From Octopus vulgaris (lineage: Eukaryota), in assembly GCA_951406725.2 (NCBI GenBank), contig OX597816.1, forward strand, positions 96,100,001 through 96,164,000: a DNA stretch of 64,000 bases, given 5' to 3'. A program made the translations under genes and the position numbers. This document shows positions 10,692-63,567 of this stretch, piece after piece; position 1 is the stretch's first letter; each line of letters starts with the position of its first letter. Under the pieces are notes generated by a model. It did no database searches. It saw only the letters and a list, made by a program, of their open reading frames with translations, and had not been told where the DNA came from.

Positions 10692-11993
10692 TCCTGTTAG
10701 GTGCTAGAGGTGGTAGGGGTTCGCTCCCCCTGTTGGCAATGTTTTGTATATAAAGGATGCAGTGTGTCACACCGATTACCAGCTGGCGGTGAATCTGCCA
10801 TGGGTTAAACTAGTAGCAATATTCCACAGCCACTTTGATGTGGCTACTGACTTTACTGTTTATATATATATATACATATTCGTCAATTGTAAATAATGTA
10901 AATAATTCCTCATCTCTTAAATATAGAACGGAACTTAATCTATGTTCTCAAATGTGGAGGGTGTGGTGGGGACTACATAGGTCAAACTAGCTTAACTTTG
11001 AGGCATAGACTTACGGTGCACAGGCAACAAATAGGGGACCCCACCACTGGGAAAATTCCCTTAAGCAAGCACCTAAATCAATGCCCCATAGATATAAACG
11101 CTAAATACCAAATCTTCCCTCTGTAACAATGCACTGGAAACACTTCAACCCAATTCCGTTTAATAAGGAAAACATACTGATTAATAAATATAAACCACAG
11201 CTGAATATCCTTTAAAAAGAAGAAAAAGAAGTTAAAAAAACGACTAAATTTCAACACAAAAAAAACCCAACCAGGAACAATAAACATTCTTTTAAAAAAT
11301 TTAGTAACAATCTTTCACCCGGATTCCGAAACTGCAACTCCAAATCACTATACAATCACCAGTTGCCGATGTCACCTACATCTTGTTCAATGAAATTTTA
11401 CTAACACCAGTTGCTGACGACACCTAACTCCAGACTAATCAAAACCGAACTTCAGTAAATACAACGAAATGATCCTTTAAGAGGAACAACCAGCCGAAAA
11501 GTCTTATGACCATCTCCACAGGGAAACCAACCAAGCAGAACGACAAGCTTGACCACTGGAAAAAAATGTCACCAGTAAATATGAATCAAAAATCAGATCC
11601 GCTTGCGGAAAAAAAATATTAATACATCTGATCTCAAAACATACCACTACAAGCGAAAGCCTCTACAGAAAGAGGATCAGAGAAACTGTAAACCAAATTC
11701 CTTTTTTTACGATTTTTATTTCTCCCTTGTTTTTTTCAGTATGTCTTGTTGACCACCTTTAAAATTAATGAATTTTGTACATTCAAACAAATTGATATAC
11801 AGTTTTAATATTATTGACTGCTATGAATATTCAAACTTACACCTGTCCTCCTAATTCATAATGCAAAATTTATCTGTTTTCGACATGTTAGTTTGTCAAC
11901 ACTGAAACTGCTAAAGATGTTTTTCTAATTCATAATTATAACTTTTACCATTAATAAACAAAGATGTTTTTCTCATTCACAACTTTAAACTTT

Positions 11994-17414: not shown

Positions 17415-18508
17415 ATGGCCGTCTACTCGTAACCGAGGAAGACCAATACTGGCACCAAGAACATTGTGCACTCTAGGACCAACTTATATTTGGCATTTGC
17501 GGCTCCGTTGGGGGCTAATAAGCCCTGCTCTTGACAAGCATACACAACTGCAAACTGCAGCACGCTTAAATTCTTCAGGCAGAATACGTGCTCTCTCAAA
17601 AATGTCGACACCCTCCTTAACCTGCTTCCTCCATCTGTGGCGATGATAGGCATTTCTCTCCTAGTCAGTCTCCTGCATATCACAGGCCTTTAATGAACAC
17701 TTGACCCAGTCCTTAAAACGTAGCCTTGGTTTCTGCCGGACTCTCATTCCATTCACAATTTCCCCATATAGCATTTGCTTAGGGATCCTGCCATCCTTCA
17801 TTCTAAGGTGTTCAGTCCAACATAACCGTTGCCTGTGCACCATCGCTTCCATACTCAAGATATCAGCTATCCCCAGGGCTTGTGTGTCTGGAGTTTTTAA
17901 GCTCCAGTCAACATTCAGAATGTGTCTGAGACATTTCTGATGAAAGCGTCCAAGGACCCTCACATGACGTTTGTAAAGGGTCCATGTCTCACATGAGTAA
18001 AGGAGCGATGTCAGTACACAATGTTTGTTTGCTTTGTGATGCCATGCTGGGACCAGACACGAGACTGAAATAACGGAAGGAATCAGTTGCTCTGTGCAGT
18101 TGCTCTGTTGCTCCAGGGAGCAAGAATGCCTGAGTGTGCTGCCCAGGTAGACAAACTTATCTACCACTTTCAGAATTGTTCCTTTAATCAAGATAGCTGT
18201 TTCTACGTATGGATTTCCTGGTGCAGGCAGGACATTACAGCAGTCTTGTCCAGGCTAATGCTGAGTCCGGATGCCTTGCAAGAAGCAAAAATACGATTCA
18301 TATGTTCACTGTATGAGTGACTAGGTCACAGTTATCTGCATAAAGGAGGTCAGGAATAAGAGACTGGAAAACTTTTATATTATCCGCAAATCGACGCAAA
18401 TACTTTACATATATTCCCAGAGAACTAACCTTAGCAAAAGCATGAGTAAAAGCAGTAGCAAAGTACAAAGAAAAGGGAGTTGGGGCTAGGATCTCACCCT
18501 GCTTGTGA
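17415..18508 (-). mobile_element. RTE-clade LINE, 5'-truncated RT pseudogene
   Basis: KQGEILAPTPFSLY, LLYADNCDL, VVDKFVYLGS, LLYSCETWTLYKRH...RFHQKCLRHIL, RIPKQMLYGE across frameshifts. Confidence 0.9.
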
Positions 18509-26984: not shown

Positions 26985-27260
26985 TAATTACAGCGTGGAA
27001 GGTGTTTATAAGCCATTTAAGAAACATACAAAAGCCGTTAGATTCACTTCAACATTTTAATTGATGCAGCACGGAATTTTGTCAGTGAACAGGTCGCGGT
27101 CTCAAAGCGACGAAAACATTTTGACAAATTAAATTTAAATGTTGAAGTGAATCTTTTTGTGTGTTTCTTAAATGGCTTATAAACACCTTCCATGCTGCAA
27201 TTGTTTTCGTTCCAGTACACCATCTCAGATCAGGTCACTTGCTATGCAAGTACATCTCCG

Positions 27261-27265
<5 letters not shown>
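26985..27265 (+). mobile_element. Short pseudo-LTR-like unit with inverted 3' copy, ending in (TA)n
   Basis: 26985-27060 is the reverse complement of ~27132-27203; about 60 nt of extra tail then (TA)n. Confidence 0.75.
27078..27128 (+). ncRNA. Hammerhead motif with G3-C8 swapped core
   Basis: tttgtca GTGAACA g gtcgc ggtctcaaa gcgac GAAA acat T T tgacaaa. Stem I 7 bp, stem II 5 bp. Confidence 0.7.
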
Positions 27266-27312
<47 letters not shown>

Positions 27313-27339
27313 TATATATATACCAATACTTATAACGAT

Positions 27340-32732: not shown

Positions 32733-33320
32733 TTGTGTTTAGTCAAAAGTTTTGCAATATTTTGATAATTTGTTTGCTTTATTTGTCAAGTTACAACAAA
32801 AGCAGCTTAGCATTCAAAGCAGAGGTCACAGTGTTGCACCGTCTGAAGTCACCTTTTTGGCACTTCTTAGATCCCACGCTGATATTAGTTCTTATCGTTC
32901 AAGGCGAAGAACTTCCTCACTCCTCCTCTTCCATCTCCTCTTGGTTGATGAATCGTCGCAAGCTCAGGAAGCGAACCATAGACTGAAACTAATAATCTGT
33001 GGGAGCAACGTCCGGACTATATGCTGGTTGTGGCATGAGTTCGATTCTTTCAAGTTCTTGGAGTTTATTGCGGATCGTTTGAGCGGTATGAGGTCTTGTG
33101 TTGTCTCGCTTTCTGTTAACCAATGCCGGGTATTTTTGCCACACAATAACATACATTTGTTCAAGCTGTTCGGAATACAGGTTGGCATCGATGGTTCGAG
33201 CGTCCGAAACGAACTTGTAGTGAATTACCCTCTCAAAATTCCAACAGACGCCAAGCATCATCTTACTTTCGATACACGCATATTTGGTGAGAGGTTCCGG
33301 ATGCTGAACCTTGGTTAGTA
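32733..33320 (-). mobile_element. Mariner transposase remnant
   Basis: KMMLGVCWNFERVIHY...DNTRPHTA...QPAYSPDVAPTDY. Confidence 0.85.
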
Positions 33321-33382
33321 ATTTCTTATGGACATTAGGATTGCGGACGAACATTACCTTCGGATTATTACTTGCATGCAAA

Positions 33383-33780
33383 GGCGGCGAGCTGGCAGAA
33401 ATGTTAGCACGCCGGGCGAAATGCGTAGCCGTATTTTGTCTGCCGTTACGTACTGAGTTCAAATTCTGCCGAGGTCGACTTTGCCTTTCATCCTTTCGAG
33501 GTCGATAAATTAAGTACCAGTTACGCACTGGGGTCGATGTAATCGACTTAATCCGTTTGTCTGTCTTTATTTTCCCCCTCTATGTTTAGCCCCTTGTGGG
33601 TAATAAAGAAACAGGTATTTCGCCTGTCTTTATTTGCTGAGTTCAAATTCCGCCGAGGTTGACTTTGCCTTTCATCCTTTCGGGGTCGATAAATTAAGTA
33701 CCAGTTGCGTACTGTAGTCAATCTAATCGACTGGCCCCCTTCCCCAAAATTTCGGGCCCATGTGCCTAGAATAGAAAAAA
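33383..33780 (+). mobile_element. Dimeric SINE family B with target-site duplication
   Basis: tRNA-like head ggcggcgagctggcagaa...gagttcaaattc; MetaSINE-like core gactttgcctttcatcctttcggggtcgataaattaagtaccag twice. TSD ttattacttgcatg(c/t)aaa at 33365-33382 and 33781-33798. Confidence 0.9.
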
Positions 33781-50854: not shown

Positions 50855-52705
50855 GACGCCCAGGTTCGTCCCGAGATCGTAGTCGTACCTCCCCTCCACT
50901 ATAGAATGCTTTGGTTGTGTTGAAGTCGCTCAAGGTCAACCTGGGACGGCATAGTTGCTTGAGAGCAACGCGACACTCGCGGTGTCATTCACCCTTCCTC
51001 GGCCTCTTTTTGATCCATGACTGCAGTTCGGTCTTGGAGACGAGCTGCAGGAAAGTCCTTGTCACAAACAGCGACCACACCTAGTCGCAGTCTCAGCGCG
51101 TATCTGTGCATCATCAACCACGACATGCCCAGCCCTCCTTTTAATGGGTATTGGCAGCAAACGGATCGCCTGACGGAATGCATCCTTTCCACAAGAAGCG
51201 AAATAGAATGCGTTCTAGTATGGAGATGGTAGGGTCGGAACAAAGCACGACGGTCAGGCGGCAGTAGATGACGGACGCAATGTACGTGTTCGCCACCTCA
51301 GCCCGACCTTTTAGTGACAGCTTCCTCTCGGCCCATTGCTGGGCGAAAGTGACCACCCTACTCATTATCTTGTCCCAGTCCCAGTTCTTCTCCGTTTGGA
51401 GCAATGCGACCGGGCCGTCGGTCCAGCGTCCCACGACGGAGGCGCTGGTGGACGGCATGGGCATGCTGACTTTTCCCGGTTGATTTTCGCACCTGTTACC
51501 GCTTCATAGTCTTTCAGTGTCTCACCGACCAGCTCGATGTGCTTCTGGCTAGACACTATGACGGTGACGTCGCCCGCGTAAGCAGACATGCTCGTCTCGC
51601 ATCCCAATTCTCGCGGGATGGCCCTCAGCGTCGCCAGCTTCCGCAGTAGTGACTCGAGATTCAATACATATAGAAGCGACGAGAGAGGGCATCCTTGACG
51701 GACCGAACGTGCAATGTCGAAAGGTCTCGACAGATGTGCCTCTGTACAAAGCAGCTATCCAACCGCGGAAGACGGGACCGAAACCAGCCTCTATGAGGAC
51801 AGCCTCTAACTATCGATGGTCTACCCTACTGAAAGCTTTGAATTGATCCAAGTTGATCAGGGCCCCACTCATGCCAAGTTCCTTAACTACCCTGTTTATG
51901 ATGTAAAGCATAAGATAGAGGTTGCCATGCATGCTCCGGCCCGGCACGGCGCACGTTTGCGCCTTGTCAACCAGTTTCTCGATGACAAGCGCCAACCTCT
52001 TGATTAGCAGCTTGGCCAAAATTTTCAAGTCTGCATTAAGCAGACTGATGGGCCTAAAGTTATCTATTACGTCCCCCTTGTTTGGATCTTTCTTCAGCAG
52101 CGTTACAGCTCCCCGGTTCACAAAACCGGGTATGATCCCGTCTTGCTGCCAGTTGCAGTACACTGCTGCCTAGACGTCTCCAAACAAATCAGGCATACAA
52201 CTGTAAAGCTCGTAGGGTAGACCATCCAAACCTGGCGATTTGTCCCTCGCGCATTCTGCCATCGCGGCCCGCACTTCCGTCGCCGTGATGGTACCTTCGT
52301 AGCACTCTATCTCTCTTGTCGAGAGTCGTGGCAGGCTGTGCAGGTAGGAACTGAAGTCCATCCTGCGTTCTCGCTTGCCATTCCCGAACAGTCGGGCAAA
52401 ATACTGTTGAAAGGCCTCGCACATTTTACTTGGCTCGAGTAATTCGCGCTCTTGTTCATCTACCAGAGACCGAATGATAGCTTTGTTGCACTGTTGCACC
52501 TCCGCCACCCGGGCCACCTTCGTTCCTTAGAGTACGTATCCTAGCTCTGACAACACACTCTTCGTGTTTGGCGTTGAAGTGTTGGTCGAGGGCCAACCTC
52601 GCCGCCAAAACGTCAGATATGATGCCACTTCTAATCGCTTCTTCTAGCTTCTTAACAAGGTCACCCTCTACTCTGTTTCTATCTATGGCTAGGAAGACGC
52701 TGCTC
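50855..52705 (-). mobile_element. L1/Tx1-clade LINE ORF2 (RT) pseudogene
   Basis: KSPGLDGLPYELY, FRPISLLNADLKILAK, LDQFKAFSRVDH, SAYAGDVTV, WAERKLSLKGRA; several frameshifts. Confidence 0.9.
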
Positions 52706-53313: not shown

Positions 53314-53315
<2 letters not shown>

Positions 53316-53800
53316 GGTCACAGAAAACGAGAAAGCAACCATACTCTGGGATATGCCGATACACACAGATAGAGAAATTAAGGCCAACAGACCAGATATA
53401 GTTGTCAGAGATCATGAAGAAAAAAAATGCTTTCTAATTGATGTATCAATACCGGCAGATGACAACGTGTCTGTAAAAGAAATGGAGAAACTTTCAAAAT
53501 ACAAAGACCTGGAAATAGAGGTAACCAGAATGTGGAATCTAAGAACAGAAACAATTCCTATCATAGTAAGTGCATTAGGCATGATAAAAAAATATTCAGA
53601 CAAATACATAACAAAAACACCAGGACTTACAAACACATATAACATACAGAAAATTGCACTACTAGGCACTGCACACATCCTACGCAGAACACTTTCCATA
53701 CAATAACCATCAGAGCATCACAACAAATCACAGCACATACCCAAGGCACACAGAGCTGCGCTCGGTAGTGAAGTGAAAGCACACTATAAAAATAAAACTA

Positions 53801-62674: not shown

Positions 62675-63567
62675 CAGGGTGGTGAAAAGTAAGTAGGTAT
62701 TAAATATTGGTCATAAAATCCGTATCCTTTTTTAAAATTTATTGAAACAAATTAAATGGTACATGTTCTTTATTACATGGAAAAACAAATGAAAGTAAAT
62801 CTTCATATTTCAACCAGTTTTCTCAAACGGCGAGGGATGGAATGAACAACCTTCTGAAGGACGTTGTCTGAGATATTATTGAGAACCTCCTGAATCCGTG
62901 TCTCCGAGTCCTCCAGTGTGCGACGTTTTGTCTTGTAAACCCCCTCTTCTGTCCAACACCACAGCTAAAATTGCAATGGAGTGAGATCTGGACTTCTCGG
63001 ATTTCTGGTCTTCTGGACTTCTGCGGTCACTGTCTTCAGGTTTTAGCACTTGCACGTAATGGGATTGACACGGACGGAAATTCAATTCTTTATGCAACAC
63101 TGTACGTATTGTGCGTTTTGTTAGTTCACTTTCACGAGATGCTTGACGTGTTAATTTTTGTGGGCTGCGATTAAACATTTCCTGCCCTGTTCCCACGTTC
63201 TCCGCTGATCGGGATATGGTTGGACGGCCACTTCTTGCAACGTTCACAGAGCCTATGATCATCAGCTTTGCATGACAACCTTTTATTGTCTCCGGATGTA
63301 GTGTTGCATGTTTAACTTTCCATGGAGGACACCATCTCTGAACCAAATCAATGGAATTCGACACTTCATAGCGTGCTGCTATCTTAGCTTGCTCCCGAAC
63401 AGTCAAGAGACCGGCCATCTGGATAATAAGAAATAAGAAATAAGACAATAAGAAATAAGAAATCCCCATTAGTGTTATCTGTTTAAAAAATGTTTTCGTC
63501 ATGACATCAGTGATACTAAAAATTCTGCAAGCAATTTCAAATGCCTAGTTACTTTCCACCCACCCTG
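62675..63567 (-). mobile_element. Tc1/mariner-superfamily element (rosa/maT-like), deleted
   Basis: TIRs cagggtggtgaaaagtaagtagg / cctagttactttccacccaccctg. ORF with HTH region, RSGRP, and out-of-frame RSPDLTPL. Confidence 0.85.

Follow-up and report, generated by a model that had tools for sequence, protein, structure and literature searches.

Minimal hammerheads from end repeats of metazoan Penelope-like elements (PLEs) share the consensus core CUGANGAH, with U3-A8 as the sole variant at positions 3 and 8 in the available part of that source (PMC4209133). Hammerheads with U3-A8 are known in nature (Perreault et al., 2011; PMC3088659), and a full pairwise scan found the G:C swap to be the only rescuing double change in its motif (PMC9901934). 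In Poseidon_Ac (PAc), from the green anole, two internal sites serve as starts of reverse transcription, mutating the hammerhead leaves insertion in vitro unaffected and insertion draws mainly on uncut RNA; cleavage requires the element protein and is partly rescued by the double change C3G/G8C (Frangieh et al., 2024; PMC11167929). The swap chemistry is already known from mutants: a sequence-only reading of the octopus locus described below stated that a double swap restores activity, and in PAc the rescue is partial (PMC11167929). Naiad PLEs spread without hammerheads (10.1101/2021.04.23.441226), the internal TATA-less promoter of Penelope carries Inr and DPE elements (PMC2377424), and PLE end repeats are the proposed source of retrozymes (10.64898/2026.07.22.740005). 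What hammerheads do for PLEs is puzzling: insertion in vitro needs no cleavage, and the motif is nonetheless retained. The part of the hammerhead literature whose text we searched gave no precedent for a natural G3-C8 hammerhead.

Such a motif lies in the window, that is, the whole 64,000-nt stretch of Octopus vulgaris DNA analysed here, within an insertion whose parts are listed below together with those of the motif.

26986..27062, minus strand: second arm of the insertion, inverted and truncated at its 5' end, equivalent to element positions 70-146, with no hammerhead core (self-alignment, 48 nt at 94% and 23 nt at 96%)
27063..27263, plus strand: forward copy of a ~207-nt element, assigned as the pLTR (3' end repeat) of a Penelope-like retrotransposon
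27203..27263, plus strand: 'tail' bounded by the family's two preferred 3' ends (element ~144-152 and ~198-207)
27265..27322, no strand: (TA)n microsatellite at the insertion end, an AT-rich target (sequence reading)
27078..27128, plus strand: type I minimal hammerhead motif (direct reading, descriptor scan, family comparison)
27078-27084 pairing with 27122-27128, plus strand: stem I, 7 bp (direct reading)
27085..27091, plus strand: core G3 U4 G5 A6 A7 C8 A9, with the swapped pair G3 (27085) and C8 (27090)
27092, plus strand: extra G between A9 and G10.1 (direct reading; the same G occurs in the C3-G8 sister families)
27093..27111, plus strand: stem II, 5 bp (27093-27097 with 27107-27111) and a 9-nt loop, with G10.1-C11.1
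27112-27114, plus strand: G12 A13 A14 (direct reading)
27115..27120, plus strand: stem III strand AACATT, a near-palindrome here and the predicted dimer interface
27121..27122, plus strand: predicted cleavage site, after U17 (27121) of a UUU triplet (hammerhead numbering)

The inverted arm (26986-27062) aligns against 27132-27202, and the forward copy lacks 6 nt after 27154 that both the family and the inverted arm retain. The architecture proposed in the sequence-only reading, an inverted 3' copy, a tail (to 27263) and (TA)n (27265-27322), is borne out. The window copy is ~94% identical to its closest scored relatives (40 scored among 1,599 candidates) and is one decayed, ordinary member of family debris. 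Elsewhere in the window, frame fragments at 17661-18254, 32989-33579, 51141-51754, 53314-53706 and 62876-63544 resemble, by eye, LINE/mariner-type transposon proteins.

Stems I and II flank the core and the motif ends in stem I, as expected of type I. U4, G5, A6, A9, G12, A13, A14, A15.1 and U16.1, the G10.1-C11.1 pair and an NUH site are all present, with U as N17; the canonical C3 and G8 are absent from 27078-27128, and the G3 and C8 found instead are able to form a Watson-Crick pair. We take the cut to fall after U17 (27121), a predicted position assigned from general hammerhead numbering. Stems I and II, GAAA, the core GUGAACA and the UUU site had been correctly described from the sequence alone, with the extra G at 27092 overlooked; the near-palindrome AACATT had also been given with the right letters but is a change private to this copy, the family strand being the perfect palindrome AATATT in 58 of 62 copies with intact flanks. 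A descriptor scan of the window returned two loose matches, of which 27078-27128 was the sole strict one (7-bp stem I, 5-bp stem II, paired 3-8), while each of 20 dinucleotide shuffles gave zero to four loose matches and no strict one. A loose U3-A8 match with 4-bp stems, at 18191 on the minus strand, is at chance level. Rfam gave nothing at gathering score across the 64,000-nt window and, at E<=10 in 27000-27200, 19 matches of which none was to a hammerhead family; the prediction that standard CUGANGA searches would miss the motif proved right, and extends to Rfam. A search of solved structures came back empty.

In stem III the window copy departs from its family: the self-duplex of AAUAUU is worth -0.2 kcal/mol in the family versus +2.8 kcal/mol for AACAUU in the window copy, and in the lowest-energy fold of the latter G3-U4-G5 mispairs with the stem III strand, which the palindrome-breaking change permits. 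For the family motif, U17 and an all-A/U stem III predict slow cleavage; the window copy, owing to its disrupted stem III palindrome, is likely to be a weak or inactive ribozyme.

The swap is nevertheless not peculiar to this copy. Across the genome (2.8 Gb, 227 contigs), exact 20-mer patterns for the family counted at least 6,460 G3-C8 matches, 401 with G3 and another base at position 8 and 218 without G3, reversed controls giving none; G3/C8 is the family consensus. In a sample unselected for the core, G3 accounted for 75 of 77 letters and C8 for 78 of 84, and long copies carried G3-C8 in 19 of 22 cases and G3-G8 in two (30 loci examined, eight without a hammerhead within 900 nt). Judged by the census, the core-unselected sample and the long copies, G3-C8 is the inherited source state of the family.

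Once inserted, copies appear simply to decay. A sample of 130 arms from 90 loci on contig C1, picked by a downstream motif (first 100 of 6,959 matches) and holding seven arm pairs that duplicate one insertion, differed from the majority in 25 of 988 core cells (2.5%), and, with subfamily-variable sites excluded, divergence outside the core came to 2.7% for the downstream part and 2.4% for the tail, rising to 6.0% and 6.3% when such sites are included. By this measure inserted copies decay neutrally, with the core at background rate. One inverted-pair insertion was re-amplified, its junction unchanged, seven times or more (L280, L331, L332, L335, L336, L339, L357), and L035, L072 and L074 match it, shared flanks included. 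In family A, the sites that change at subfamily level lie in loop II, in the flanks and at a wobble-compatible stem I site, and none lies in the core. Positions 3 and 8 change singly and independently among family copies: by eye count, the first 100 listed of 236 G8 matches include 93 with G3 and no C3-G8, and all 11 C3 matches among the first 100 of the 218 non-G3 ones keep C8. The sequence-only reading had named independent variation as a sign against its case, and formally that sign is seen; copy-level independence is, however, no fair test of the source elements, because dead insertions behave in this way. At position 8, C-to-G is about as common as the C-to-T transition and far above G-to-C at position 3; G8 (35 of the first 100 G3/non-C8 matches, by eye count) is commoner than a transversion would predict and occurs on several subfamily backgrounds. 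A single G3-G8 subfamily was ruled out, 28 G8 copies lying on several backgrounds and being older (median 4.7% vs 2.5%).

These counts also bear on whether the window copy might itself be selected as a host ribozyme, which we regard as highly improbable. In favour are an intact core, intact stems I and II and the inverted arm, which encloses the hammerhead in a long hairpin; against are ~94% identity to the closest scored relatives, a broken palindrome that also lets G3-U4-G5 mispair, and decay of the family's cores at background rate. The two transversions had been read as suggesting selection on catalysis; they neither arose in this copy nor acted on it, having been inherited from an old source lineage, with a single origin on the tree described next.

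Homologous families with other states at positions 3 and 8 occur in the same genome. Canonical hammerheads gave 5,154 matches (control 693), and relatives that have a short loop and share the stem II ends numbered 1,988 non-G3 and 124 G3 (controls 3 and 3). The first 100 non-G3 short-loop matches, read by eye, were 76 C3-G8, 14 U3-G8, four C3-A8, two U3-A8, two A3-G8, one U3-U8 and one A3-C8, with no C3-C8; the first 100 G3 ones had C8 in 61, G8 in 29, A8 in seven and U8 in three. Those 61 comprise 40 short variants of the window family and 21 older G3-C8 motifs outside family A, and the 29 are single mutants on C3-G8 backgrounds. Older G3-C8 families align end to end with the window element. 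A downstream-only profile, which contains no hammerhead, scored above zero in 10 of 22 B, two of nine C and four of seven D copies (best 16.8 bits), that is, in 16 of 38 C3-G8-family copies vs none of 38 reversed controls; on this similarity outside the ribozyme, the C3-G8 sister families are homologous to the window element.

With columns 3 and 8 removed, a tree still sets the G-C families apart from the C-G ones, its basal branches being weakly supported and the old copies decayed, and we infer that the swap arose once, in the ancestor of the G-C families. Among 30 hand-picked copies the 3-8 pair is intact in 29 (GC 15, CG 10, UA 3, UG 1), and one pair of stem II covaries (GC 14, AU 9); kin share states in such counts, and G-C has one origin and counts as one event rather than as repeated covariation. 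Searches for the older G-C and sister families fixed most core letters, which makes core conservation in them circular except at position 8. A third lineage is small: three loci, L311-L313 (C3:61874259, C4:98837224 and C4:114272107), form a U3-A8 family with its own six-base G/C stem III palindrome, and their type makes up four of the first 100 matches listed in one pattern search. Most other U3-A8 matches of that search were dismissed as double-transition decay of C3-G8 families. L256 and three similar matches, an old short-loop family, have U3 with G8, possibly a U-G wobble source state or else C3-G8 decay. Read with G-C as one origin, the comparison supports compensation of the pair between lineages, and selection on the 3-8 pair between lineages seems likely.

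The element to which the repeat belongs was reached through upstream extensions of family copies. Some copies continue upstream via a microsatellite-rich stretch, followed by an end resembling a branch point, pyrimidine tract and AG (493 candidates), and the longest run on into a frame whose C-terminal part encodes a GIY-YIG domain (PF01541). This domain scores E 1.7e-4 and 22.2 bits, just under the 22.6 cut-off, in L425:6628-7767, and E 2.6e-4, again just below the cut-off, in L374. The L425 hammerhead, ~1 kb downstream of the stop and contiguous with the GIY-YIG frame, is G3-C8. Reverse transcriptase (RT) pieces of L374 are frameshifted, and their motif B region matches a Pfam-positive PLE protein at E 1e-6. 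The RT motifs SLYP, GAIG..G and YVDD were read by eye; three RT pieces had no match in Pfam, and the YVDD/thumb (motif C) piece gave no significant alignment to PLE RT (E 0.17). A Cys-rich linker, also read by eye, suggests the Neptune/Nematis clade. Because long copies adjoin the RT/GIY-YIG frame, arms terminate at either of two sites, as is typical of a Penelope tail, and many family loci carry inverted arms, we assign the window element, from its sequence context, to the 3' end repeat of an endonuclease-bearing (EN+) PLE.

Several other candidates for the parent were rejected: the tandem repeats on C23 (12.5 kb) and C6 (4 kb), neither of them full-length, and the best GIY-YIG matches in the genome, which are young 781-aa PLEs with no link to the window element. 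The C23 array (L410-L416, 13.06-13.11 Mb) consists of tandem ~12.5-kb units with part of the parent upstream region and a fragment of another PLE. L181-L183 represent a young PLE family with many intact 781-aa frames and, in two of the three, an upstream frame of 359-378 aa; the descriptor found no hammerhead in their 6-7 kb. The window also holds a GIY-YIG fragment of a different Penelope-like element, at 10929-11177 (tblastn E 9e-15).

The ends of the copies indicate what was inserted. Of 130 arms, 55 end at 144-152, 74 at 198-207 and one elsewhere, so that both the two-3'-end tail (129/130 arms) and the inverted 5'-truncated arm, features of EN+ PLEs, are present. As for the 5' starts of the same arms, 64 lie at positions 1-8 and two at the cut site (position 60). 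Because only these two begin at the cut site, the inserted template is, as read from the arms, mostly uncut RNA, and mobilisation would not need cutting. Among 52 copies whose 5' edge is plain, 44 are preceded by G and 22 have G at -3, where the parent reads C; a capped transcript from an initiator-like site would account for this, the alternative being splicing to a short exon, and no splice donor giving a GAG leader was found in 1 kb of parent sequence. The 5' edge itself, at window 27060-27066 and family-wide, fits both a parent 3' splice site and an initiator-like start with a cap-derived G. A 22-codon frame begins at the element 5' edge, and an open frame spans some variants. When three raw RNA-seq runs (~6 in 100 of the reads of each) and one contig set were mapped to a family copy, depth was smooth in either orientation, with no pile-up of molecule starts or ends; fragmented libraries of this kind show ribozyme cuts poorly, and we give the result no weight. 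A search of sequencing runs listed matches under five organism labels, with no match on record as RNA, and the mapped data come from one of these labels.

The same data speak to the idea that the unit is a non-LTR retrozyme replicating as a small self-cleaved RNA circle. A type I hammerhead in a short non-coding repeat, together with the proposed origin of retrozymes from PLE end repeats (10.64898/2026.07.22.740005), would suit it, as would one locus (L023) with six direct copies at ~426-nt spacing; but this is the sole such array, head-to-tail hammerhead monomers being found at one of 120 loci, starts do not fall at the cut site and long copies are continuous with the coding PLE, which leaves a retrozyme very unlikely.

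We consider it probable that the window copy is a decayed PLE end-repeat copy, whose inherited G3-C8 was likely selected in source elements that preserved the 3-8 pair, with weak cutting predicted, as a dimer or with an element protein. A G-C ancestor would have swapped the pair once, and source elements would keep the swap because pairing is preserved. Transcripts would start at the element 5' edge, or be spliced to it; the element protein would nick AT-rich DNA and start reverse transcription at either of two internal sites; and the RNA would be copied into DNA mostly uncut, any cleavage serving another step, the processing of tandem transcripts. Slow cutting by the family motif, as a dimer joined at its palindrome, is fairly likely, and the window copy is probably less efficient, if it cuts at all.

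A different view is that the hammerhead shape is kept for a role other than cutting, such as an internal promoter, splice signal or protein-binding site, or by drift in a few source elements, with cleavage lost. The core lies ~20-35 nt from the sharp 5' edge of the element, like the Penelope Inr/DPE promoter (PMC2377424), insertion in vitro is unaffected by hammerhead mutants (PMC11167929), Naiad PLEs do without hammerheads altogether (10.1101/2021.04.23.441226), G3-G8 copies are frequent and copies come mostly from uncut RNA. Yet both changes hit exactly the 3-8 pair, a third lineage (L311-L313) has U3-A8, stem II covaries (GC 14, AU 9) while stem III remains self-complementary, and subfamily changes in family A avoid the core. 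A non-cutting role, for the reasons on this second side, strikes us as unlikely, although it deserves more weight than the retrozyme or host-ribozyme readings. Under the preferred reading, a selected and weakly cutting ribozyme in the source elements, selection on catalysis would still be deduced indirectly, integrated copies deriving mostly from uncut RNA. It is conceivable, though we lean somewhat against it, that the old, amplified natural G3-C8 lineage is an active ribozyme tuned to slow or protein-dependent cutting, leaving uncut RNA for insertion.

The motif is a real, inherited and old variant of a known hammerhead class, with self-cleavage predicted. A lineage that swaps its 3-8 pair and keeps the swap suggests selection on the catalytic fold among source elements. 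In one genome, upwards of 6,000 motifs escape CUGANGA descriptors and Rfam; if the G3-C8 lineage is indeed an active, tuned ribozyme, (i) censuses based on CUGANGA overlook whole families and (ii) one genome with homologous C-G, G-C, U-A and perhaps U-G families offers a natural series on why PLEs keep hammerheads, with C3-G8, G3-C8 and U3-A8 as matched natural constructs for assay.

Compared with known systems, the octopus motif resembles the minimal PLE hammerheads of Cervera and de la Pena (2014), which are likewise type I, with an extra nucleotide between 9 and 10.1, G10.1-C11.1, a palindromic stem III (matched by the octopus family but broken in the window copy), a pLTR location and thousands of dispersed solo copies; it departs from their consensus in G3-C8, in G as the extra base (H in the published one), in a 7-bp stem I and in U as N17 (PMC4209133). 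Metazoan non-LTR retrozymes share the short non-coding repeat, the type I hammerhead and kinship with PLE end repeats (10.64898/2026.07.22.740005; PMC7229834), whereas octopus copies are not head-to-tail monomers and are continuous with a coding element. Like the U3-A8 hammerheads of Perreault et al. (2011), the octopus G3-C8 is a natural compensated 3-8 change, but theirs takes two transitions and retains the pyrimidine-purine order, while G3-C8 takes two transversions and reverses it (PMC3088659). PAc and the octopus element have in common two internal 3' ends that define a tail, AT-rich targets and insertion of uncut RNA; in PAc G3-C8 was engineered, the tail is 30-40 nt and the hammerhead overlaps the start codon (PMC11167929), whereas in the octopus element G3-C8 is natural, the tail is ~58 nt and no frame start is seen at stem II.
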